A DNA stretch of 24,586 nucleotides from the IMG/VR virus record IMGVR_UViG_2939142107_000008. One strand, given 5' to 3'. Source of the DNA: a virus (taxonomy: Duplodnaviria; Heunggongvirae; Uroviricota; Caudoviricetes). The position numbers and the translations under genes are program-made. Shown here in pieces: positions 1-13,777 of this stretch. The notes under the pieces are model-generated. The model was given only the letters and a program-made list of their open reading frames with translations, did no database searches and was not told the DNA's origin. Positions within the stretch are counted from its first letter, which is position 1. Each line of letters starts with the position of its first letter.

Positions 1-780
1 ATGGAAAACAAAAAAAGTTGCGTTTATTGTAAAAGCACAACAAACTTAACTAAAGAACATATTTTCCCTTCAGCAATAATTAAAAGTTTTAATGTTGAAC
101 TTTTATCGATGACTGATAAGAGTGACTACCATTTTAAAGGCGATCCAGTTATTGGGGATGTATGCGCTGAGTGTAATAATGGAATACTGTCGCAACTAGA
201 TGCTGATTTCGTAACTTGTTTTAAAAATCAGATGCTAACACCTTTAAAACCCGGAAATGAAATAACATTTGAATATGAATATGATTTATTATTACGTGAA
301 CTTCTAAAGATATCATATAATTCAGCGAGGGCATCAAATGGTGGTTATAATGCCAGAGCCATTTTAGAAAAATACATACCATTCATAATCACTGGCAATA
401 AAAACAAAAATGTAGATAGTATAATTCTTTCCCTTCTAATTGTAACTTCTGCAAATATGGTTAATCTGGAAACTGGTAAACATGAAGAGCCTTTAGAACC
501 ATATCTATTAAGAAGCGCATCGATTGATGGTTTAAACCTCAACCCTAACAATTATATTGTTAGGATGGTTGCATTTAATAGCTTTTGGTTTTTTTTGTTA
601 ATTCCAAAGAGGCCAGTTACATCCAAAGTGAAAAAAGAATTTTGGGATGAATTTAAAAGAAAAAATCATCTGCATGGAGTTTTGTTAAAAAGAAACAACA
701 CGTCAATAAAGATCACAAAAGATAAAACGACATATTTGCATCCTGACTTAATAGAAAAGATGTGGCGAAAAATAAAGTAG
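1..780 (+). CDS. HNH-motif nuclease-domain protein (259 aa), possible stand-alone abortive-infection/defence gene
   Basis: N-terminal CxxC...EHIFP...CAECNNG (C-x2-C, E-H, C-x2-C-N) is a classic HNH zinc-finger nuclease signature; remainder has no recognisable motifs; very AT-rich codon usage unlike the phage core; ORF begins exactly at window position 1 so upstream context is unseen. Confidence 0.55.
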   Translation: MENKKSCVYCKSTTNLTKEHIFPSAIIKSFNVELLSMTDKSDYHFKGDPVIGDVCAECNNGILSQLDADFVTCFKNQMLTPLKPGNEITFEYEYDLLLRELLKISYNSARASNGGYNARAILEKYIPFIITGNKNKNVDSIILSLLIVTSANMVNLETGKHEEPLEPYLLRSASIDGLNLNPNNYIVRMVAFNSFWFFLLIPKRPVTSKVKKEFWDEFKRKNHLHGVLLKRNNTSIKITKDKTTYLHPDLIEKMWRKIK

Positions 781-1040
781 AACAAATTTTCCAGTTGACA
801 ATACCAAAAATAATTAATGGGGACTAGGTTAAATGACGCAGTGGAACAAACTCACCAGAGAAGAAAATTAATGGTATTAATGTTCAATGTGTTCATTACT
901 GTAACCTAGCCCCTACTAATTTATTCACTATATTGCTGAGTATGTCCGCATCTGGCACATAGCAGCCCTAGAGATAGGAGCACACAGTCATAGATGGTCG
1001 GTGGGAGGTAGTGAAAATCCTCTCATACAATAAATACGTA

Positions 1041-1130
1041 AAATCGATAACGGCAAGAGACCTTTCAATACTCGCACTATCGGAAGTTAACCAACCTGCC
1101 ACAGCACGTTCTCGCATACACGTGTCTGCG
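1041..1130. repeat. Copy A of ~90-bp imperfect direct repeat (partner at 3298..3388)
   Basis: aaatcgataacggc...cgcactatcg...gcatacacgtgtctgcg aligns colinearly with 3298..3388 at roughly three-quarters identity by eye; lies in the intergenic region 3' of the ATPase/RloB operon. Confidence 0.6.
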
Positions 1131-1194
1131 CCCCCCCCCCTCCATCAATCATAATCAGATAGAGCCAAAAAACAAAAACAAAAACAAAAAAAAC
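1131..1194. repeat. C10 homopolymer followed by A-rich (AAAAAC)n microsatellite
   Basis: Ten consecutive C at 1131..1140 directly abutting repeat copy A; aaaaaacaaaaacaaaaacaaaaaaaac at 1167..1194. Confidence 0.8.
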
Positions 1195-1391
1195 ATCAAG
1201 TTACAACAATAAAAAAGACGCCAGTCAACCGATGATGAAACAAATGAGGATACGCAAAGGAGCCGCAGCTCCCTAGTAATATGAAAGCCCAGACCATCAA
1301 AGCAGAAGACTGTTAAAATATCAAAAACCCGTTATCCGCTGAAACACAGTACTACTTTGTTTAAGTTAACGATATTGCCTCAAGGGCAGTT

Positions 1392-1925
1392 TTAAAATAC
1401 GGTGAATACATCACACAGGTCCGATAAAACTTCTCGACAAACATGCCTATGATCGCTGAGCACAGAGTTTATATGCTGAAGTGTTATATACTCTTCATAC
1501 CATTCTTGTGTTACAACATTTTTCAAATTATAGAGCCTGTGAAATGACTCTTTTGCCTCCTGCGAATTAACAAATTGTTGATTATGCCCCATTAACCTCA
1601 TTAAAAACCCCTCCAAACAAAATGGTGAGGATTGAATGATTTGTATGTCTCTATTTCTAGCAGCAGATAGAGCATCAGTAGGTATTGCAAGGTCTGAGTC
1701 AATAAAAACAACTCTTTTATCAAAACTACCAGCATGGTTTATAGCAGCCATTATAGCTGATTTCGGTCCTCCACCGCCGGCATCATCTAACCTAACACTA
1801 AACCCTGCAGTCCTAGTTGTTAAGAGTCGTTTTAAACAATCAGCAAATCTTTTATCAGTAATTCCTTCGCACATCAAAAGCTTAGTTCGTTCAACTCCAC
1901 GCTTTACACGTCTGGGCTTCATCAT
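1392..1925 (-). CDS. RloB/Toprim-like small protein (177 aa), putative nuclease partner of upstream ATPase
   Basis: N-terminal LLMCEGITDKRF resembles the CEGxxTE motif I recall for RloB-family proteins; later VVFIDSD gives a Toprim-like E...DxD arrangement; start ATGATG overlaps stop of the ATPase gene (1922..1925), implying an operon. Confidence 0.5.
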   Translation of the reverse strand: MMKPRRVKRGVERTKLLMCEGITDKRFADCLKRLLTTRTAGFSVRLDDAGGGGPKSAIMAAINHAGSFDKRVVFIDSDLAIPTDALSAARNRDIQIIQSSPFCLEGFLMRLMGHNQQFVNSQEAKESFHRLYNLKNVVTQEWYEEYITLQHINSVLSDHRHVCREVLSDLCDVFTVF

Positions 1926-3196
1926 AAGTCTGGTACTCCTCCAAAAGCACCAGCTAAATATTTAGCCGCAATATTATCGTCGACTCGCGCCTCACTGGAT
2001 GGAAAATCATCAAGTCGATAACATTCACTTCTATTGAATTTTTTCTCAGTAATCAACACACGGTACTTACCCAAATAATTTATCAATTCGGGTTTATGAC
2101 AAGTAAAAATTAACTGTGCATGTAACGGGTTTGTTTCTTTACTGATAAACAACTCTAATATAGGTTTAACCATATGTGGGTGCAAATCATCACCAAGTTC
2201 ATCAATAAAGCATGCTGTTCCTTTTTTCAGACATTGCATAATATTATGCAATCTGATAAATGCACTTTGTGTTCCAGCAGATTCGAATGCAAAGGGTAAC
2301 TCAAACTTGGAACCATCTTCTTTTTCATGAATACCATTTATAATATAATAAACATCCTTCTCACCGTTTATATCAACTTTCTCTTCTTTTTCTATAGTTA
2401 TATCATCTAAACCTAAATCCCATTTGCGTAAAATATTTTTTACACTTTTAAAGGCTACTGGATCTTTATATAAATCCTCCGCTGTCGCACCTAAATCTCC
2501 ATAATCATAGCTATACCTTCCCATAGCATTTACATTAGTAGTACTGCTCATTTTTTCGGCTATATCTATAGCCAAAGGAACACCTACACGGCGAGCTGCA
2601 GAAATTATACTTGTATTAGCAGGAGTTCTCTTACCCTCTAAAAGACCTAAAGGAAAAAGTTCTGCTTTTTCAACATAATCATATTTAATTGTTTTTAACA
2701 GTTCTTCAACTTCTTGATGACTAAAATCATCACTACAATTATTTAACTGTTTCTCATAATTTTCTTTATCCAACTTCCTTTTAAAAACATAGATATTTTT
2801 ATTTTTCTCATTTCTTACATACAATTCTTCTTTAATGACAAAATGGTCGCAGGCCGTAACAACATATGTGTATACTTTTCCATCTAAAACAAAACATATT
2901 TTAATCATACCTGGTTTTGTAAAAGGCCGATTAATGTTTAAATACAGATAATCAGTTACTTTTGCTGGTATAGACCAAAAAAACCAACTCAAGAAAGACA
3001 TTGGTTTAAGGAGTGTTGTCTTACCGGAGGCGTTCGCCCCCATGATAGCAGTAATCAGATTGACCTTGTGTCCATCTACATCTACCCACAGTTCTTTTTT
3101 CTTATCTTTAGCTGTAGTAGTTAGGTCTACGAACCCACCTTCATCTTCAAAGCTACCGATATTCTTAATCTCATACCAAAGTATAGCGTTAGCCAT
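1922..3196 (-). CDS. ABC-type ATPase (AAA_15/AAA_21-like, 424 aa), OLD/AbiLi/PARIS-AriA-like
   Basis: Walker A GANASGKTT near N-terminus; distal FESAGTQSAF, Walker B-like ACFIDELGDD and downstream H (FTCHKPE) consistent with split ABC ATPase fold; RBS agagggg upstream of ATG; AT-rich. Confidence 0.6.
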   Translation of the reverse strand: MANAILWYEIKNIGSFEDEGGFVDLTTTAKDKKKELWVDVDGHKVNLITAIMGANASGKTTLLKPMSFLSWFFWSIPAKVTDYLYLNINRPFTKPGMIKICFVLDGKVYTYVVTACDHFVIKEELYVRNEKNKNIYVFKRKLDKENYEKQLNNCSDDFSHQEVEELLKTIKYDYVEKAELFPLGLLEGKRTPANTSIISAARRVGVPLAIDIAEKMSSTTNVNAMGRYSYDYGDLGATAEDLYKDPVAFKSVKNILRKWDLGLDDITIEKEEKVDINGEKDVYYIINGIHEKEDGSKFELPFAFESAGTQSAFIRLHNIMQCLKKGTACFIDELGDDLHPHMVKPILELFISKETNPLHAQLIFTCHKPELINYLGKYRVLITEKKFNRSECYRLDDFPSSEARVDDNIAAKYLAGAFGGVPDL

Positions 3197-3297
3197 AACC
3201 CCTCTTTTTATACAAAAAAATGTTCAAAATCGCCACATGCTGAGTTTATAGCAGGAAGCGTATATAGCAAGCAAAAAAACATAGACATGATTTAGTT

Positions 3298-3388
3298 AAA
3301 TCGATAACGGCCGGAAATCATTCAATTCCCGCACTATCGAACGTTCACCAGCCAACCGCAAAACGTTATTGCATACAACGTTTCTGCG
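3298..3388. repeat. Copy B of ~90-bp imperfect direct repeat (partner at 1041..1130)
   Basis: Same motif order as copy A (aaatcgataacggc / cgcactatcg / gcatacaacgtttctgcg); located between tail-fibre stop and ATPase start. Confidence 0.6.
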
Positions 3389-3586
3389 GCATAATCCCAA
3401 TGATTACTCCCTGACAGGATTTGCAGGCCACTCAATATCAGGTGCAGTTGATGTATCAACACGGTTCAGCAACACCCGATACTTTTTCCAGGCTTCCAGC
3501 AACAAGGTTTCTTTCTCCGTTGCGATCTCCAGCTCAACAACAGTCTGAACGTACCGGGAACAGCCTCCTTCAGAGCTTGAAGGATA

Positions 3587-6154
3587 TCAATGTTCGCTTC
3601 CTGTTAACTGCCGGACAAGTGCAACCAGTTCGCTTACCTGATTTTCCAGAGTGCTGATCCGGGTGTCTGCTGTTGCCAGATTTTCACGTAGCGTTGTGTT
3701 TTCCTCTTCCAGCGCGGTAACGCGATCATCTGTTTCACGGGCGACCTGAACAAGTAAACCCGTCACGGCGGCGTAGTCAACATTAAGATAGCGCGTTTCT
3801 TCGCGTAGCTCGTTGCCGTCAACGGTCGGGCCTTGCAACTCTTCACCGTAATGAGTAAACGATCCCACAGCTTCTGGTATCGCCTCCATTACTTCCTGTG
3901 CAATAACGCCAGCATAAGGCATCCCGTTTTCCCTGAGCGTGTAGGTGTATCCGTTCATTTTACGGATTGCTTTCGTCGCGTCGCTGATAACGAGAATATC
4001 GTCTTTAAGGTCGCGGTCTGATGACTGATTCAGCGTTGTGCAATTAATAGCGCCATTTACATCAAACAACTGGCCTGCTGACGTTTTTTGCGCATAAAAC
4101 AGATACGCAGCAGACGTGCCAACCTCAAAAACGTTTTGTCGAGTACTGGAACCCCACACCCTGATACCAACTGGTAGTTCTGAATTACCTGAATTAAGTA
4201 AAGCAAAACGATTGCCAGTCCCTGTTTGTTTTCTAATTACTAAATCGGCAGTTGAGTTAACCTCATCTTTGTTGATGGTTAGCGCCTGTGCTGTAGCACC
4301 GTTGACAGTACCGCTTAGTAGTTGCACCGCGCCATCATCGCCATTTAACAGCACTTGAGCGCTGCTTCTGTGGTTTTTAAGGCACAACATTTTTCCCGTG
4401 TTTTTCGATGTACCTACTGACCACGCCGAATTGGTTCCAGTGCTATCAACACCGCGCACAGCACAATTCATACTACTGTAATCTGACGTACTCCCCAGCA
4501 CATCAACACGCCCGCCGCCTAATTTTGATGGAGTCGTCGAGGTTAACGACCTGACGGTTACATCCTGATTCCATCCTGAAACAACTACCTGACTCCACTC
4601 CGTCCAACTTCCATTGACAACAAAGCGAACGTATATGCGTTTTGTGTCGCTGCCAATCAGCGTTTGCATGATCGCATAATCTGAACCCGTAGTTTTACGA
4701 GTAGATTCTACACGTAGCAAAAAGTTACCGCTTACGCCGTCAGGCTTATTGGTAATATATGCACCACCTGCGACAGTTTTGCATTGATAGTATTTAACAG
4801 ATCCAGCCACTGTATTAGCAATGATCAAGTCGTTTAAATCAATAGTCTTGTTGTCAATGGTTTCCGGCTCGATAGATCCCGCCATACCTGCGTTAAATGT
4901 GGCAAGGTCAGAAAAGGTTGTTTTACCGCCTACCGTCACCCCGCTATCGAGTTTTGCTTGTGTGATTACTTTGCTGTTTTTTGTGTGGTCAGAATAACTA
5001 CCAAAATACAAATCACCGTCACCAGCTATACCCAGGTATTTTTGATCAACATCATCAACCTTAAACCCAATGGACAAGTTTTTAATTGTGTTGTTGCTCG
5101 TTAAAACCAAAGGCGTATGCTGAGATCCTTTGATGCTTACCGTAGTGTTATCGGAACTGGTGCTTGTGTTTGCAAATTCTGCGGTGGCTGCGCTGATTTT
5201 GTAAGTTATTTTTAGATTGCGGGCCTCAACCCTCCCGTCGTGGCGAACAATAAAATCACCACTTGATTCACCTTTTGTGTTTTTCGCCCTGATGTGGATT
5301 TCGCCAAGTGATTCGTTGTTTTCAGGCGACCAAACAACGCCGCGCTCGCTTCCGTCGTTGTTCATGAACCACAGATGAGCGGTTCCTTTTGCTGATTTTA
5401 GCCTGATAGATGGCGTTTCTTTCAATATATCAAGATCACCAGACATAACATCGCCGGATTTTTTCACCTGCGCATCGTTAGTTACGTTGCCAAGTCCAAC
5501 ATCCGATTTCGACGGCTTGTTTGCCGAGCCGTATAGCTCATTGATGCTAAAAGTCCCGTTGTTAAGCCGGGCATCGTTGCCGGCATAGATCTTAATCTTC
5601 GCGGTTGAGTAGTCGATATTGATCGCTGACCACGTATCGCCGCACCGCGAGAATATACCAGAACCGTGGCTATAAATGGTCGCCGTGCTTCCGGTCGGCC
5701 TATCACCGCGCCAGAAATGACCACCTTTGTCACGCAGAGCTTTTAAGATCTCTACATCGCTCATCTTGCCGTTTGTTGATATCCCGCTACCGCCAAGACC
5801 GAAAGCGCCTGTAAGCATAGCATTAGAAAGACCCAAATCTGCTTTAGTCGGCTTGTTTAACTGGTCGTAAATCCTTACAACGGGGCTTTCAACATATCCA
5901 GAAGGCGCGGCGGTTTGCTTAACAAATCCGTCTGGAATGTATAATTCCGTGCGTGCCGTCTGCGCCAGTACCGCAACCTTCAGGGGTATCCCTTTCACCT
6001 GGTTATCTCCCGCAACGGTATTCCCGGCAACCTGCCGGGTGGCAACCGAGACCGCTTTCTGTGCCACACGGTTTATCGCCCATGCGCTGGCCTGTGGCAC
6101 CATACGGGTATCAAGGCTGTTCAGATTGCGGATGGCATTCTCAAGCCCCTTCAT
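3587..6154 (-). CDS. Phage tail fibre/tail spike (855 aa) with C-terminal intramolecular-chaperone (peptidase S74-like) autoproteolytic domain
   Basis: Fibre-repeat-like segment (LGNVTNDAQVKKSGDVMSGDLDI); C-terminus SDRDLKDDILV...GYTYTL...GVIAQEVMEAIPEAV...YLNVDYAAVTGLLVQ matches the S-x4-K dyad and conserved blocks of self-cleaving C-terminal chaperone domains of endosialidase-type fibres; GAGG RBS. Confidence 0.8.
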   Translation of the reverse strand: MKGLENAIRNLNSLDTRMVPQASAWAINRVAQKAVSVATRQVAGNTVAGDNQVKGIPLKVAVLAQTARTELYIPDGFVKQTAAPSGYVESPVVRIYDQLNKPTKADLGLSNAMLTGAFGLGGSGISTNGKMSDVEILKALRDKGGHFWRGDRPTGSTATIYSHGSGIFSRCGDTWSAINIDYSTAKIKIYAGNDARLNNGTFSINELYGSANKPSKSDVGLGNVTNDAQVKKSGDVMSGDLDILKETPSIRLKSAKGTAHLWFMNNDGSERGVVWSPENNESLGEIHIRAKNTKGESSGDFIVRHDGRVEARNLKITYKISAATAEFANTSTSSDNTTVSIKGSQHTPLVLTSNNTIKNLSIGFKVDDVDQKYLGIAGDGDLYFGSYSDHTKNSKVITQAKLDSGVTVGGKTTFSDLATFNAGMAGSIEPETIDNKTIDLNDLIIANTVAGSVKYYQCKTVAGGAYITNKPDGVSGNFLLRVESTRKTTGSDYAIMQTLIGSDTKRIYVRFVVNGSWTEWSQVVVSGWNQDVTVRSLTSTTPSKLGGGRVDVLGSTSDYSSMNCAVRGVDSTGTNSAWSVGTSKNTGKMLCLKNHRSSAQVLLNGDDGAVQLLSGTVNGATAQALTINKDEVNSTADLVIRKQTGTGNRFALLNSGNSELPVGIRVWGSSTRQNVFEVGTSAAYLFYAQKTSAGQLFDVNGAINCTTLNQSSDRDLKDDILVISDATKAIRKMNGYTYTLRENGMPYAGVIAQEVMEAIPEAVGSFTHYGEELQGPTVDGNELREETRYLNVDYAAVTGLLVQVARETDDRVTALEEENTTLRENLATADTRISTLENQVSELVALVRQLTGSEH

Positions 6155-6770: not shown

Positions 6771-6820
6771 CAGCCCCGTTCAGGGGCTGATTTCAGGTAC
6801 AAAAAAAGCCCTTACGGGCC
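6771..6820 (-). terminator. Hairpin plus T-tract after capsid gene and GC-rich leader hairpin before next gene
   Basis: Minus-strand reading gcccgtaagggc followed by T7, then 7-bp GC stem cagcccc/ggggctg just 5' of the RBS; the first stem is only 4 bp so termination is probably partial. Confidence 0.35.
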
Positions 6821-6843
6821 ATCAGAGTTGTTGTCTGCGACGT

Positions 6844-8988
6844 TTACGCCGTACATTTCACCAGACCGCGGTGATCAACTGGCGCGACACCGGCGTCAAT
6901 ACGCACTTTCGTTGTCACGCCATCCACACTGAAGCCCTCCATCTGATCAATATATGGCGTATCCACACCGTTGAGATAAGCCACTTCAATCGTATCGGAG
7001 CCTTTTGACGCAGCCAGGTAGAAGGTGGTCTGGCTGTTATCATCAAGACGAGGCTCTGCAATAACGGTCGCAAAATCTTTCACCGGGTTAATAATACCGG
7101 CGTTAATGTCAGCCCCCTTGACACTTGAGGAGCGAATGACCTGGTTAGCAACAGACTCCATCGCCGTCGGTACCAGTACGAACGCAGGACGAATATTCAG
7201 ATGACGCTCCCCCTCTTTCTGAACGCGCATCAACTGGCGGGCTTTATCCAGCGATGCCACGTCCATTGCAGCGCTCTCCAGTACGTTTGCATGTTTCGCT
7301 TTATCGAACAGACTTACATTATCTGTGGAGATTTTCGGGTTAGACGTCAGAATGGCATAAACCAGATCGGCAATAGTGGATTTCGCCGCACGGCCCAGTT
7401 TCATCGGGACATCGGTCAGCATATTCAGATCATCATTGATAATGGCCTGACGGGTGATACTGAACAGCTCGCCATAGGTCGCCAGTGCAATAGTGGCCTG
7501 TTTATCTCCGGTGGTGACGTATTTATATTCCGCCCCTTCACGCACCTGACGCAGAGCACTGAAGCCCCCCATACCCACACGATGGGCAATTTTAAAATCA
7601 GACAACTGACCTTTCCGCGTCCACTGTTCATAGGTTTCAGGGGCATCTTCCCAGCCCTGCAGAATGGCTTTGTTCGCAACATCCAGCAGAATATTACCGA
7701 AGTCAGACGTACTGTGTGTGAACGCCGCACCGACCATCTGCATCGGGTTATAACCGGAAACCCCAATACCCCGTTCAGTCAGTGACATACGGGCATATTC
7801 ACGCAGGGTCATCCCGTTGTAGACATTATCACGTTCGGTTTTTTCAAATCCGGCACGCGCCATCAGCGCCTGGCGAATCCCGTCCCCCACAAAATTACCG
7901 TTACCGGCATAAATATGAGCCGGGGTATTTTTATTGGATGGCGTGGACTCGCGCCCCATCTCGTTCAACAGCTTTTCACGGGCCTGCTCCAGCGAACATT
8001 CAGGATCGGCAAGACACTGAGCCTGCAGCGTCTGATAACGCCCGCCAAACATGGCAAACAGATCATTAATACCGTTTACACGCGCTTTTTGCTCTGCCAG
8101 TACCTGTGCACGGATGCTGTTTTCATCCACCACGGGTGCTGCTGCCTGCACTGGCGTCCGGGAGGCTTCAGATTCATTATCCTGTACGCGTGGAGCACTG
8201 TTGCGTGGCGGAGTAATCATGTTTCGAATGGATTCCGGCATCTTTTTAAATTCCTCTGTACGTTTTGACTGAATACATGCCATTGCCTTAACGGCTGGCG
8301 TTACCTGATCAGCAAATCCATGTGCCAGACATTCGGCACCGGACATCCAGGTCTCATCCGCCAGCATGGCAGCAATTTCATCGGTGGTTTTCCCGGTTTT
8401 CTGTGCATAAGCGGGTAACAGAACCGCCTCAACTTTATCGAGCAGGTCGGCATAGGTGCGCATGTCCTCCGCATCACCGCCCGTAAAGCCAAATGGTTTA
8501 TGAATCATCATGAAGGTGTTTTCCGGCATAATGACCGGGTTTCCCACCATCGCAATGACCGACGCCATTGACGCCGCCACACCGTCGACATAAACGGTAA
8601 TGGACGCACCATGTGTTTTCAGCGCATTAAAAATGGCGATGCCTTCAAAGACATCGCCACCCACGTTGTAGACGAACGAGTAAAGAGCGCCGCGCGTTGT
8701 TTCCGGTATATCGACTTTGATGTACGGGTTAATTTGTCTGGCAACCGTGGCAAGGTCTTTATTCAGGAGGGCTTTGCATTCTGCTTCGGTATACGTTTTA
8801 CCGAGCATGATGTCTTTTCCGGTGTGTCCGTGACATACAGTCCATACGCCAACGATATCTTTGTATGGTATGTAGCTGACACCTTCCAGGCCATCGTCAC
8901 CACTTGGGCCAGTGATTAACACTGATGCTATAGCAATTGCTCCGCCACCAATAGCAGCAGCAACTGCTTTTCGTAATGATGGAGGCAT
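6844..8988 (-). CDS. Chimeric ORF: SAR-endolysin N-terminal fragment fused in frame to ClpP-like prohead protease and major capsid domain (714 aa)
   Basis: Residues 1 to ~88 ([30 protein letters not shown]...YSFVYNVGG) match my recollection of the phage 21 SAR endolysin, including the SAR helix and the E/D/T catalytic region; from [13 protein letters not shown] onward the sequence is ClpP-like (GxxASMASxIAMxG, MIHKP); C-terminal ~450 aa is capsid-sized and follows the protease as in protease-MCP fusions. Confidence 0.7.
8725..8988 (-). pseudogene. R: Truncated SAR endolysin (5' fragment, C-terminal ~75 aa missing)
   Basis: Endolysin-like sequence stops abruptly at ...YNVGG and continues as ClpP-like sequence; junction coordinate approximate (about aa 88). 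Confidence 0.6.
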
Positions 8989-9203
8989 TATTCACCTCTC
9001 GCAGCCTTGCGCTTATCTTCTTTAATCTTGAAATAAAGGTTTGTCAGGTACGTCAGCAGGCCAAATACCAGACTACCCAGCACACCTATTGCCGCCCACT
9101 GTGAGGGCGTGACTTTATCGAGCAACTGTAAAAACCAGTACCCGGCACTACCTGCTGAGGTGCCATAGGCGACACCCGTTGTTAACTTATCCATGGATTT
9201 CAT
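8988..9203 (-). CDS. S: Pinholin, S21-like class II holin (71 aa) with dual-start MKSM motif
   Basis: [71 protein letters not shown] is near-identical in pattern to the phage 21 S pinholin as I recall it; two TM segments; charged C-terminus; start trimmed from ORF-track 9266 to the MKSM ATG at 9203. Confidence 0.85.
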
Positions 9204-9270
9204 AACCCCACCTCGCAGATGCGGGTGCTGTGTAATGGAAATAAAAAGGCCACCTGACGTGGCCACCAGA

Positions 9271-10323
9271 TTATTTCCCCACCAGCTCGTTTATCTCTTT
9301 CACTGTCTGGTTAAACCGCTCTGACTCAAGCTCAACACCTAAGGCCCGACGCCCCAGCGCCATTGCTGCTTTTATTGTGGAACCGGATCCCATAAAAAAA
9401 TCAGCAACCAGATCACCTGGTCGACTACTGGCATTGATTATTTGCCTGAGCATATCCGCCGGTTTCTCACACGGATGTTTCCCCGGGTAGAACTGAACGG
9501 GTTTATGCATCCAGACATCGGTATAAGGCACGGAGACTGATACGGAGAAATAGCGCCGGAGAGATTTAAACTCATCCAGCAATTCAGAATATTTGCGATT
9601 CAGTGAATCATAAGATGCCACCAGCTGGTGGTGTGGTTGTTCCAGTTGTTGTTCCTGAAACTTCTCTGCCGCTATACGGGAAAACAGTGCCTGTAACTTC
9701 CGATAGTCAGCCTCATTCGGCAACTGCCACTGACTGGCACCAAACCAGTGGGAAACCATATTTTTCTTACCTGTGGCTTCGGCAATTTGTTTTGCCGTTA
9801 CACCCAGTTCGGCACGAGCATCCCTGAAATACGATATCAGCGGTGCCATTATGTGCTGTTTGAGTTCCCTTTCTTTTGCCGCATAGCCGTCACTTTTGCC
9901 GCGATATGGTCCCTGGTAATGTTCAGCAAACAGAACGCGCTCTGTGGCAGGAAAATATGCGCGCAGACTTTCTTTATTACACCCATTCCAACGTCCGGAC
10001 GGCTTCGCCCAGATGATATGGTTAAGCACGTTGAAACGTTCACGCATCATGATCTCAATATCAGATGCCAGGCGATGCCCACAGAACAGGTAAAGGCTTC
10101 CGGCAGGTTTCAACACCCGCCAGAACTGGGCCAGACAGTGGTCCAGCCACTTAAGGTAATCTTCGTCCCCTTTCCACTGATTGTCCCAACCGTTGGGTTT
10201 CACCTTGAAGTAAGGCGGATCGGTAACAATCAGGTCAATGGAATCATCAGGCAGGGACTGAATAAAATGCAGGCAATCAGCGTTGATTAAATCAACACTG
10301 TTTATTTTTACAGTATTTTTCAT
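9271..10323 (-). CDS. DNA methyltransferase, N6-adenine/N4-cytosine class (beta-type, DPPY then FxGxG), phage orphan Dam-like
   Basis: IVTDPPYF (motif IV) in N-terminal region and FFMGSGST (motif I) near C-terminus; no adjacent restriction gene. Confidence 0.8.
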
Positions 10324-10915: not shown

Positions 10916-12076
10916 ATGACTACACTCAAAGAACTCAAAGAAGAGCTTGCTCAGATACAAGATGAACACGCTAAGAACAGAAAAAAGGCTGAAATTGCAG
11001 CTTTAACCGCTTCCGCTGACAATGAAATCAGACTCGCTCAGAGAAACATTGGATACAATGTACGTGAGTGGACCGTTGAAGTCATTATTCAAAAGTATGG
11101 TGATAATATTGAAAATGACAAAAACGAGCTTTTTATTCCAGATTATCAACGTGATTACAAGTGGGATACAAAAACAGCCTCTCGCTTTATAGAAAGTATT
11201 CTATTAGACTTTCCAATACCTTACCTTTACATTGCTGATGTATTTAATGAAGACCCTGAATTAGATGGTAGGGTAGAAATCATTGATGGTTCACAACGGA
11301 TACGCTCTATTTATTATTTTTGGAACGATCAATTTGAGTTAAAGGATTTGAAAGAGCTTAAAAGTTTAGAAGGTTTCAAATTTTCAGATCTTTTAGCTAG
11401 CCGCCAAAGAAGATTTTTAAGAGCTTCACTAAGATTTATTGAGTTGAAAGGTGATGTTGAGGAACAACATAGAAGAGATTTATTTGAAAGGATCAACTCA
11501 GGTGTTAAAAGATTAGAAGCGATGGAAGTGAGGCATGGCTCAGATGCTGCTACCTCAATGTTCTATAAAGATGTTGTGACCCCATGCTCAACAAACTCAC
11601 TTTTTTCCCAACTAGCTCCATTATCAGACCGGAAACGGTCGAATGGCGATCATCGTGAGTTAGTTTTGAGATTTTTTGCATATTTAAATGATTTAGAAAA
11701 CTATAAGGGATTTGTCCGTCCCTTTATTGATAATTATTTAAATGAACAAGCAGCAGCTGTGACTACTCAACAAGATGTTGATAATTTTAAACATGATTTT
11801 GAAATGATGCTTGCTTTTGTTGCTACCCATTTCCCTATTGGCTTTAAAAAGACCGCAACAAGTAAAACCACCCCACGAGCCAGATACGAAGCCATTGCCG
11901 TGGGAACTGCACTTGCATTAAAAACTAACCCACAACTCCAGAGTCCAGCCGTACCTGTAGGTGAATGGCTATTTGAAGAGGAATTTGAAACACTTGTTAC
12001 TGCTGATAGTGCAAACAATACCAGCCAGCTAAAAAACAGAATCTTTTACGTTAAAAATAAGTTGTTAGGGATTTAA
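10916..12076 (+). CDS. DUF262 (ParB/Srx-like) domain protein, 386 aa, lacking the DUF1524/HNH nuclease half
   Basis: FIPDYQRDYKW and IIDGSQR correspond to the two signature motifs (QRxxxW and DGQQR) of DUF262 as found in GmrSD/SspE/BrxU N-terminal domains; no His-Me/HNH motif in C-terminal half; AGGA RBS; AT-rich. Confidence 0.7.
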   Translation: MTTLKELKEELAQIQDEHAKNRKKAEIAALTASADNEIRLAQRNIGYNVREWTVEVIIQKYGDNIENDKNELFIPDYQRDYKWDTKTASRFIESILLDFPIPYLYIADVFNEDPELDGRVEIIDGSQRIRSIYYFWNDQFELKDLKELKSLEGFKFSDLLASRQRRFLRASLRFIELKGDVEEQHRRDLFERINSGVKRLEAMEVRHGSDAATSMFYKDVVTPCSTNSLFSQLAPLSDRKRSNGDHRELVLRFFAYLNDLENYKGFVRPFIDNYLNEQAAAVTTQQDVDNFKHDFEMMLAFVATHFPIGFKKTATSKTTPRARYEAIAVGTALALKTNPQLQSPAVPVGEWLFEEEFETLVTADSANNTSQLKNRIFYVKNKLLGI

Positions 12077-12078
12077 AA

Positions 12079-12768
12079 ATGAGTCTAATTGATTTACGAG
12101 ATGAATATGAAGAAAGAGCAAGAGACATTATGGAACTGCTTTCTCTTGCATCATCTATAGAGATTCATACTCAGCAGTTAGATCCGCAAGCGCATCAAGA
12201 TGAAATAGAATCTAATATCCTAAGGGTAAATATTTTAAAATCATCCGTTCATATGATGCTATATAATCAAGTTGAAAATACTGCCAGAGGTTGCATCGAG
12301 TCAATTTATGATCATTTACAAGATAATGAGGTGAATTACGCATCACTCAGGGAGAAGCTTCAAGTAAATATATTACATAGAATTGTTTCAGATAATGAAA
12401 CAGGGCAATCCCTTTATAAAAAGATAGGCACTGACATTTCCAAAAGAATAATTTCAGCCTCATTGAATATTCGTAAAGAATTCAATGGTAATGTTTGCAA
12501 GCCTGTATTACACAAAATAACGCAGGCTTACGGAATAACTATCGCAAACTCACCTGAATGTAGAAATGGTATTGACTTAGACTTGCTTAAGGATATCAGA
12601 AACGAACTCGCGCATGGAAGTACTAGCTTCTCTAAAAAGGGGCAAATTGACCCCTTAGAAGAAGTTAAGTCTAGAGCAGAGAGAGTTGATCTATATCTTC
12701 GTTTATTAATAAACTCAACTGAAGATTATATTATCTCTAACGGATATTTATCCCCTCAACATGCCTAA
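12079..12768 (+). CDS. HEPN-like protein (229 aa), putative RNase/effector partner of DUF262 protein
   Basis: RNELAH near C-terminus fits the HEPN Rx4-6H motif; gene starts 3 nt after DUF262 stop (operon); 3' end overlaps convergent MTase by about 32 nt. Confidence 0.5.
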   Translation: MSLIDLRDEYEERARDIMELLSLASSIEIHTQQLDPQAHQDEIESNILRVNILKSSVHMMLYNQVENTARGCIESIYDHLQDNEVNYASLREKLQVNILHRIVSDNETGQSLYKKIGTDISKRIISASLNIRKEFNGNVCKPVLHKITQAYGITIANSPECRNGIDLDLLKDIRNELAHGSTSFSKKGQIDPLEEVKSRAERVDLYLRLLINSTEDYIISNGYLSPQHA

Positions 12769-13777
12769 CAAACGTTCTCCCTATTACTTGGCCAATTATA
12801 GGGGGAACAGCATTACCAATCATCGTTCCTAACTTTTGGAATGAAAAAGGCGTATTTTTTCCAATAAATTTATAATCCATAGGAAAAGATTGTAAAATAG
12901 CAGCTTCACGCAAAGTTATTGCTCTATTTTGCTCAGGATGTCCGAATCGCCCATTACCATATCCATAACATTGGGTAGTTATTGTAGGACTAGTATCGTC
13001 CCAAACCATCCGTCCATAAACACTTTTATAGGTAGCACCTGAATGCTTTTTATGGCAATCCGCTCTAATTTCTTCAGGCCAATCATCCCACGTACCACCT
13101 GGTAAAGAGTGCAAGATTCGTTTAAGGTTAATATCCCTTAATTTAGGCGAACGATGCAATGGATCACTTTCGAGTTTCTCCCCTGCACCTATTTTTGGCA
13201 ACTGACCAATAGCATCCTTTACTGTAACTTTACGGCTTACTTTTTTTTGATCAAGGCTGATTGGCCCCAATATGGACCCAATTAGAATTAATCTACGTCT
13301 ATTTTGAGGCAAGCCATACTCGGAACATTTTACAACGTCGTACCACAGATGATACCCAAGAGTCTTTAATACACTAACAAACTCTTCAAAAACCTTATGA
13401 TTTCTAAGTTGAGGAACATTTTCCATAGTCACAAGCTCTGGCATGACATCACTTACAATCCTCTGAAACTCAGATAAAAGACGCCACTTTGTATCATCTT
13501 TTCTGCTATTTGGATTACGATACTTGGAAAACGGTTGGCAAGGGGCACAGCCTGCAAGTAATCTAATATTTCCTTCCTTGAACATAGCAGACACATCGCT
13601 GGATTGCAGTTCAGTAACTGACTGGTTAATGAACTTCGTTAAGGGATTATTGCTCTCAATAGCGAAACGGCAGGACTCATCAATATCAATGCCATGAGAA
13701 ACTTCAATCCCGGCTTTTTTTAGCCCAAAAGTTAAGCCCCCTGCGCCACAAAAAATGTCTACTGCTTGAATGTTCAC
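12737..13777 (-). CDS. DNA (cytosine-5) methyltransferase (346 aa)
   Basis: Motif I FCGAGG, motif IV GCAPCQPFS (PCQ), motif VI MENVPQL (ENV), motif VIII LPQNRRR; GTG start with GGAG RBS; AT-rich relative to phage core. Confidence 0.85.
   Translation of the reverse strand: MNIQAVDIFCGAGGLTFGLKKAGIEVSHGIDIDESCRFAIESNNPLTKFINQSVTELQSSDVSAMFKEGNIRLLAGCAPCQPFSKYRNPNSRKDDTKWRLLSEFQRIVSDVMPELVTMENVPQLRNHKVFEEFVSVLKTLGYHLWYDVVKCSEYGLPQNRRRLILIGSILGPISLDQKKVSRKVTVKDAIGQLPKIGAGEKLESDPLHRSPKLRDINLKRILHSLPGGTWDDWPEEIRADCHKKHSGATYKSVYGRMVWDDTSPTITTQCYGYGNGRFGHPEQNRAITLREAAILQSFPMDYKFIGKNTPFSFQKLGTMIGNAVPPIIGQVIGRTFVRHVEGINIR

Follow-up and report, generated by a model that had tools for sequence, protein, structure and literature searches.

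A putative AbiL/RloAB-type ABC ATPase and Toprim gene pair at the tail-fibre end of a degraded lambdoid prophage of Escherichia coli

The stretch of viral DNA analysed here (24,586 nucleotides, hereafter the window) carries two genes on its minus strand, between the tail-fibre genes and the end of a prophage. The abiLi-like gene (1922-3196, minus strand) encodes a 424-residue ABC-type ATPase (AAA_21/AAA_15), the predicted sensor and neutraliser of the pair, and the abiLii/RloB-like gene (1392-1925, minus strand) encodes a 177-residue protein, a putative minimal OLD-type Toprim nuclease that would act as the toxic effector. The ATPase stop codon and the small-gene start codon are joined by a 4-nt ATGA overlap (junction GAC TTA TGA / ATG ATG AAG), an arrangement typical of translational coupling, and the small gene is predicted to be coupled to the ATPase gene in this way. 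The sizes and the overlap, read off in a preliminary description of the letters alone, agree with the ORF list and the junction sequence, and the AT-richness it attributed to both genes is confirmed: the ATPase gene has 33.8% GC and the small gene 38.4%, whereas the adjacent tail-fibre gene has 47.8% and the whole window 45.8%. Measured against the Salmonella orthologues, the ATPase has a dN/dS ratio of 0.037 and the small protein one of 0.045, the synonymous sites being almost saturated. Because this purifying selection is strong (dN/dS ~0.04), both ORFs are real functional genes and not chance reading frames. The sole terminator-like site found falls within the region of the operon junction and probably arose by chance.

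The chromosomes of E. coli AR437 and several other strains contain the window at 100% identity, and RefSeq annotates there a degraded lambdoid prophage adjoining paoABCD. All that is left of the structural region of this prophage is a portal gene and a truncated head protease joined to a truncated lom-like gene, and the same prophage holds a second defence-like locus. The gene order comprises the tail-fibre genes, a tail-fibre-assembly pseudogene remnant (about 3404-3538, RefSeq annotation) between the tail-fibre gene and the ATPase gene, the ATPase gene, the small gene, 611 nt of non-coding DNA, and a convergent ORF of 259 residues (1-780, plus strand); a truncated chromosomal LysR gene lies ~680 nt beyond the latter. 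From this order, the pair is in the cargo position, flanked by the tail-fibre genes on one side and by the prophage end on the other. The preliminary description had proposed tail-fibre-proximal prophage cargo, and the location at the prophage end is confirmed. Its placement of the pair between a tail-fibre gene and an HNH gene holds as far as the neighbours go, with the corrections that the tail-fibre-assembly remnant intervenes and that the HNH_5 match of the 259-residue ORF is sub-threshold. No hsd genes are annotated within 20 kb of the pair, and no helicase gene is found near it. With hsdR, hsdM and hsdS missing and the tail-fibre-assembly remnant, the tail-fibre gene and the HNH-like ORF as neighbours, an RloAB pair housed within a restriction-modification locus was rejected.

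At the nucleotide level, the Salmonella, Citrobacter and Klebsiella loci are homologous from about 1383 to 3300, up to ~100 nt 5' of the ATPase start codon, and this defines an upstream leader (3197-3300, minus strand) that travels with the pair across genera. Read by eye, the leader contains a Shine-Dalgarno-like AGAGGGG 5 nt before the ATPase ATG, together with TTGCTT and TATAAA at a spacing of 18 nt as a weak promoter candidate of sigma-70 type. As a consensus promoter scan upstream of the ATPase gene found no site, the latter is a promoter that we infer from the letters. The one match in an Rfam scan of positions 700-3700, to IS009, is sub-threshold and lies within the tail-fibre-assembly remnant. 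The gene pair is bracketed by the two copies of an imperfect direct repeat of 83 nt (77% identity, spacing 2257 nt, no strand assigned), the left copy (1038-1120) lying within a non-coding segment and the right one at 3295-3377.

The ATPase matches the PADLOC AbiLi profile PDLC02335 over residues 3-424 (E 2.5e-66, 222 bits); this, like the other PADLOC evidence below, is a profile match of a single protein. Pfam analysis reports AAA_21 (4.7e-19, 70 bits, cut-off 27) and AAA_15, the latter with a score exactly equal to the gathering score. An alignment of 27 homologues, with identities down to 30%, shows a complete set of ABC motifs: the Walker A GANASGKTT (residues 53-61) with invariant G53, N55 and S57-G-K59-T60, and the likewise invariant signature E305-S306-x-G308-T, Walker B D332-E333, LHP motif at 338-340 in the D-loop region, and H-loop H367. 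The Walker A sequence and the distal Walker B and H-loop-like elements picked out in the preliminary description are thus all present. The AlphaFold2 (AF2) model (pLDDT 88, pTM 0.87) finds by Foldseek the heads of Rad50 and SMC proteins and the PtuA proteins of Septu and retron Ec78 (E 1e-8 to 3e-11), while phmmer against PDB sequences gave nothing meaningful. The protein is an ABC-type ATPase, of the class common to OLD, PARIS, Septu and AbiL, as the preliminary description had it. An ABC transporter subunit or an SMC protein was considered and rejected, there being no membrane partner nearby and, in place of a long coiled coil, just a short helical insert. The enterobacterial clade to which this ATPase belongs possesses an extra segment of ~33 residues (about 143-175) that is absent from relatives of ~35% identity.

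Following AbiLi, the next PADLOC matches of the ATPase are two AriA models (3.3e-22 and 9.8e-8), while those to PtuA and HEC models lie at about 1e-5 to 1e-7. Together with the shared logic of a two-gene ABC ATPase and Toprim system, the AriA hits might suggest a divergent PARIS (AriA/AriB) system. However, the two AriA models (304 and 373 positions) cover the same ATPase ranges as AAA_21 (304) and AAA_15 (374), and because their lengths and ranges run parallel to these, the matches look generic; AbiLi moreover beats AriA by ~44 orders of magnitude. The small protein, half the size of AriB, returns no DUF4435 or AriB match in either Pfam or PADLOC. A PARIS identity was hence rejected for want of an AriB-type partner and is very improbable.

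For the small protein, PADLOC reports two AbiLii models (PDLC02338, E 1.5e-9; PDLC02337, E 1.8e-4), the match being limited to residues 58-146, and a weak match to the Toprim part of GajA. Direct scans of Pfam (even at E<=10), NCBIfam and PHROGs return no match, RloB (PF13707) included, and phmmer against PDB sequences stays at chance level (E 0.24 or worse). RefSeq labels the small gene 'hypothetical protein' and the ATPase gene 'AAA family ATPase'. Several orthologues of the small protein are named 'glycosyltransferase family 2 protein', a name without support in the present results. A word-indexed protein search collected 21 clusters, which come exclusively from Enterobacteriaceae and lack Pfam domains; because it reached only these close relatives, an exhaustive profile search was needed to arrive at the wider RloB family. 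Run with the small-protein family alignment, that search gathers 607 proteins at E<=1e-3, mostly of 160-190 residues. When ten of them were tested, RloB was the sole Pfam match (E<=0.01) in nine, four scoring above the gathering score and five below, and one of the nine being a 177-residue member of the query's own clade. The nearest relatives outside the enterobacterial clade score 18.6-50 bits on PF13707 (cut-off 31.5). Aligned by hhalign with six RloB-type proteins, of which four pass Pfam's cut-off, the 16-sequence family reaches 99.9% probability (E 2.3e-35, 153 columns).

The gene neighbourhood of the ATPase relatives points the same way. Three of them (~35% identity) were looked up, and a Pfam-RloB gene lies immediately downstream in two, the third being followed by a 41-residue ORF or a gap with no RloB neighbour. 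In the Stenotrophomonas phage vB_SmeS_BUCT708, the gene after the ATPase relative is annotated 'RloB domain-containing protein'. BLASTP of the small protein against the partners of the ATPase relatives reports 31-33% identity (E 3e-17, 3e-13 and 2e-19) with the motif order kept, and the partner at E 3e-17 scores 52.7 bits on PF13707. Three independent lines, namely gene neighbourhood, direct similarity and profiles, thus link the small-protein family to RloB.

The AF2 model of the small protein (pLDDT 86, pTM 0.81) is confident and consists of four strand-helix units and then a helical C-terminal region. Its closest solved folds are the OLD nucleases and GajA, and it aligns over 137 residues with the 204-residue C-terminal construct of Burkholderia OLD. 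The protein is therefore predicted to adopt the OLD-type Toprim fold, a four-stranded parallel sheet flanked by helices. Invariant among 16 homologues are E20, D24, D47, G51-G-G-P-K55, D76-S-D78, C103-L-E105-G and A124-K125. They include the two motifs noticed beforehand in the raw translation, CEG (residues 19-21) and DSD (76-78). In the model, strand 1 is followed by E20, with D24 four residues on, strand 2 by the glycine run (G49-G53, likewise invariant), and strand 3 by D76-x-D78, while the helix after strand 4 opens with C103-x-E105. The two-metal site of Burkholderia OLD is made up of E400, E404, D455, D457, T506-x-E508 and K562 (PMC6755086). Judged by pattern and by position in the model, the acidic set of the small protein appears to parallel this site, and a complete two-metal acidic site is predicted within the 177 residues. 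K125, which is invariant and aligned with the conserved RloB lysine, is the candidate catalytic lysine. The RloB/Toprim partner that had been postulated from motifs alone is thereby recovered through the AbiLii profile, the hhalign comparison and the modelled fold. Profile, synteny and fold together assign the pair to AbiL/RloAB rather than to PARIS, and defence annotation tools would very probably call it AbiL. The preliminary description had left the family of its split-OLD module open: the AbiL-like reading stands by the AbiLi/AbiLii profiles and the fold, and the PARIS alternative does not. Of the sequence outcomes that it named as fatal, neither a small protein lacking Toprim or RloB affinity nor an ATPase grouping with transporters or SMC-type proteins was observed.

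The 259-residue ORF (1-780) displays an N-terminal CxxC...H...CxxCN pattern, but its HNH_5 match is below threshold (23.8 bits against a cut-off of 27.5) and it has no PADLOC match, hence none to PtuB. Its bearing on the pair needs consideration, since in E. coli the two co-occur in exactly the same 13 genomes, and since ABC ATPases of the same class pair with HNH nucleases in Septu, whose PtuA structures are among the fold matches of the ATPase. A three-gene, Septu-like system, in which the HNH-like ORF would be a second effector working with the ATPase, would account for both. It would also suit strain F467, where ORF and pair travel as one block (-556 to 3381, window coordinates) between two prophage types: the block adjoins pinE and the tail-fibre-assembly genes of a contractile-tail-baseplate prophage on one side, and IS1 and conjugation genes on the other. 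However, the ORF is separable from the pair both ways: the Salmonella, Citrobacter and Klebsiella loci carry the pair with no such ORF next to it, and Klebsiella oxytoca has an apparently frameshifted homologue without the pair. With at least 99.7% identity among the 13 E. coli copies, the co-occurrence may reflect one recent acquisition. The ORF is convergent and 611 nt away and so does not belong to the operon, whose second gene is the Toprim gene, and PtuA scores only ~1e-5 on the ATPase against 2.5e-66 for AbiLi. A Septu assignment was rejected on these grounds, and the chance that the HNH-like ORF is a second effector is slight indeed; on sequence comparison it is taken to be an independent neighbour and not a component of the system.

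The pair is found in 13 of the 5,426 complete E. coli genomes, always with at least 99.9% identity. In Salmonella, the small protein occurs in 757 blocks of the assembly collection, and Citrobacter and Klebsiella carriers are found too. In these three genera the pair stands alone, flanked on one side by mtfA or by the tail genes of one prophage and on the other by the 3' end of a prophage integrase, and at one Salmonella locus (L010) it is kept with the adjacent prophage absent. The pair is thus both prophage-associated and mobile. According to a published survey, AbiL in Salmonella is mainly prophage-borne (PMC11305592). A tblastn search of the ATPase against 72,556 plasmids gave no Lactococcus among the organisms named or the 40 matches listed. 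As to how the pair moves, pieces of the left flank (945-1130) match in 5,418 of the 5,426 E. coli genomes, at a median of 3 places per genome, which suggests that common prophage non-coding sequence could be a homology source for cassette exchange. The 83-nt repeats, which would stem from this widespread sequence, may likewise serve as homology arms to move cassettes between the tail-fibre-distal hotspots of prophages.

All in all, the degraded lambdoid prophage probably carries, as cargo at its tail-fibre end, a two-gene anti-phage module of the AbiL/RloAB type in which an ATPase-restrained Toprim nuclease would bring about abortive infection. Complex formation, trigger, target and phenotype can be proposed by analogy as follows. 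In the uninfected cell, an ATPase oligomer would bind the Toprim protein and hold the nuclease inactive, in the manner of an antitoxin. Upon infection, the ATPase would sense a phage-derived trigger and release or activate the nuclease, which would then cut host nucleic acid, stop phage production and abort the infection. Two precedents are at hand. An RloB-homologous Toprim toxin and an AAA ATPase have been validated as a toxin-antitoxin pair in E. coli (PMC10440598), and in PARIS the ATPase sequesters the nuclease until a trigger releases it to cleave tRNA (PMC11464382). PARIS may therefore be regarded as the best mechanistic model for the present pair.

The first precedent also supports a rival reading, in which the pair would be a toxin-antitoxin addiction module (Toprim toxin, ATPase antitoxin) that stabilises the prophage remnant or a genomic island and has no role in defence. 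Consistent with this, the pair survives in a heavily degraded prophage and, at the Salmonella locus L010, without an adjacent one; moreover, a phage screen of a different AAA-neutralised pair (AarT, with an RNase-like toxin and no Toprim) yielded no hits (PMC10440598). However, the prototype AbiL was discovered through its anti-phage phenotype, the related ABC ATPase and Toprim systems (PARIS, Old and Gabija) are all anti-phage, and the prophage cargo position, with a further defence-like locus in the same prophage, agrees with defence. One system could, besides, combine defence with toxin-antitoxin behaviour. Pure addiction is consequently an unlikely explanation, and a defensive ATPase-Toprim module is preferred.

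Within the defence reading, tRNA or another RNA is the somewhat more likely target, because AriB and P2 Old are both reported to be tRNases, and DNA nicking or degradation is the less likely one. A DNA-nuclease effector might be a nickase, or else a processive DNase after the fashion of class 2 OLD and GajA, and would degrade phage or host DNA. This possibility draws on the nearest solved folds being OLD nucleases and GajA, on the characterisation of Burkholderia OLD as a metal-dependent DNA nuclease (PMC6755086), and on the small protein having the same two-metal residue set. In contrast, the split relative AriB cleaves tRNA, and the 177 residues are to be set against the 204-residue Burkholderia OLD construct (137 aligned), so that the helical DNA-binding region may not be kept. 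Lactococcal AbiL is, in addition, tabulated as acting 'after transcription' in a 2026 review. A DNA nuclease is thus a serious but less favoured form of the effector; it has the same family and architecture as the preferred explanation, and its probability is a share of that explanation and does not add to it.

The pair is of interest beyond this locus, as the same review counts AbiL/RloAB among the ABC ATPase and Toprim defence families of still-open mechanism; for PARIS and P2 Old, which are related to it, tRNA cleavage has recently been worked out as the mode of action. With its very short effector, its full catalytic set and its native home in prophages of E. coli and Salmonella, the pair would be a convenient AbiL/RloAB model. 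It could reveal whether all split ATPase/Toprim systems use sequestration and release, and could help to find the trigger. Tentatively, the enterobacterial clade, with its ~33-residue ATPase insertion and a Toprim protein that Pfam RloB misses, might even be a distinct AbiL subtype, a tRNA-specific, ATPase-restrained Toprim with phage-triggered release; if so, being native to E. coli and Salmonella prophages, it would offer a tractable route to the first AbiL/RloAB mechanism. In terms of genome organization, the locus is one more case of defence cargo at the tail-fibre-distal or integrase-proximal ends of prophages, a pattern already known.

Among known systems, the pair most resembles AbiL of L. 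lactis as defined in PADLOC, with which it shares a two-gene operon with the ABC ATPase first and the small RloB/Toprim protein second, matches to both profiles, and carriage on a mobile element. AbiLii is itself predicted to be an OLD-type Toprim effector (PMC13064643), as is the 177-residue protein here. The likeness is one to the PADLOC profiles, and there are differences: the present pair is enterobacterial and prophage-borne, whereas the prototype resides on a lactococcal plasmid, the AbiLii match is partial (58-146), Pfam RloB misses the small protein, and the ATPase has the ~33-residue insertion. The RloA/RloB-type pairs, including that of vB_SmeS_BUCT708, are close as well (ATPase 33-35% and small protein 31-33% identical), and exhibit the same gene order, sizes (about 400 and about 175 residues) and motifs (EG, GGxP, DxD, PC[LI]EG and CK/AK). 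RloAB as first described, however, lies inside type I restriction-modification loci, whereas the present pair is without hsd genes.

The resemblance to other ATPase-Toprim systems is one of architecture. [quoted passage not shown] In the OLD nucleases (P2 Old, the class 2 enzymes of Burkholderia and Xanthomonas, and Thermus OLD) and in GajA, the ATPase and Toprim domains are fused, whereas here they are separate proteins, and GajA needs the helicase GajB, a helicase being absent beside the present pair. Gabija and classical OLD were accordingly rejected, with the domains on two ORFs and no helicase gene nearby. The Septu proteins PtuA/PtuB and the PtuAB of retron Ec78 share the ATPase head fold (Foldseek E about 1e-8 to 1e-9), but their effector is an HNH nuclease encoded within the operon instead of a Toprim protein, and the PtuA profile scores here are weak; the HNH-like ORF is convergent, separable and without a PADLOC match. 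What sets the pair apart from its nearest kin is a minimal effector of 177 residues missed by Pfam RloB, a clade-specific ATPase insertion, and an apparent restriction to enterobacterial prophages. Because of these features, it is best described as a divergent member of AbiL/RloAB and not as a new kind of system.

The prophage is heavily degraded, as seen at ~6800-9300 of the window (positions 27410-30226 of locus L001). There, the lysis genes are directly followed by the portal gene, and a truncated ClpP-like head maturation protease lies directly against a truncated gene of the Ail/Lom family; therefore, most of the head and tail genes of the prophage are deleted. Despite this heavy degradation, the defence-like cargo genes are intact.

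The AbiL-like pair is bracketed by an imperfect direct repeat of 83 nt (1038-1120 and 3295-3377, 77% identity), which may serve as a homology substrate for swapping cargo cassettes. Pieces of the non-coding segment surrounding the left copy (~945-1130) are found in 5,418 of the 5,426 complete E. coli genomes, at a median of 3 places per genome, and a DinI-like prophage gene overlies one of the listed copies. On the other side of the pair, the region 3295-3700 is matched in 4,665/5,426 E. coli genomes. Rfam reports an IS009 match on the minus strand at 3447-3647 (92.5 bits, E-value 4e-21, under the gathering score of 117), which covers the 3' end of the tail-fibre gene as well as what remains of a tail-fibre-assembly pseudogene. 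Between the small gene of the pair and the HNH-like ORF, the non-coding DNA includes ten consecutive C residues and then an A-rich tract resembling (AAAAAC)n; this stretch (1127-1205) could be slippage-prone or represent a junction scar.

The HNH-like ORF itself (1-780, plus strand) encodes 259 residues, is AT-rich (31% GC), and displays an N-terminal CxxC...H...CxxCN pattern. Its HNH_5 match is sub-threshold, PADLOC and NCBIfam searches did not return any match, and PHROGs reports weak hits, all with families of unknown function. Exactly the same 13 complete E. coli genomes carry this ORF and the AbiL-like pair. Outside E. coli the two are separable, Klebsiella oxytoca harbouring the ORF, apparently frameshifted, without the pair. 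The HNH-like ORF may be an independent single-gene defence or homing-type nuclease.

Regarding the small gene, several orthologues of its 177-residue product, from Enterobacter, Citrobacter, Klebsiella, and Kluyvera (P0005, P0007, P0008, and P0011), are named "glycosyltransferase family 2 protein" by NCBI. Since profile and fold analysis of this protein family gives no support for that name, it looks like a propagated misannotation of a Toprim/RloB-type protein.

The same prophage carries a second defence-like locus (10916-13777), with the Q antiterminator on one side and the lysis genes on the other, and another DNA methyltransferase is encoded at 9271-10323. Within the locus, a DUF262 protein gene is followed by a gene annotated by RefSeq as a HEPN-like nuclease of the MAE_28990/MAE_18760 family, for which PADLOC reports no match, and then by a convergent DNA cytosine methyltransferase gene. 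The DUF262 protein, in turn, matches the PADLOC profiles NsnA (5.9e-45) and PD-T4-2_A (4.6e-27).
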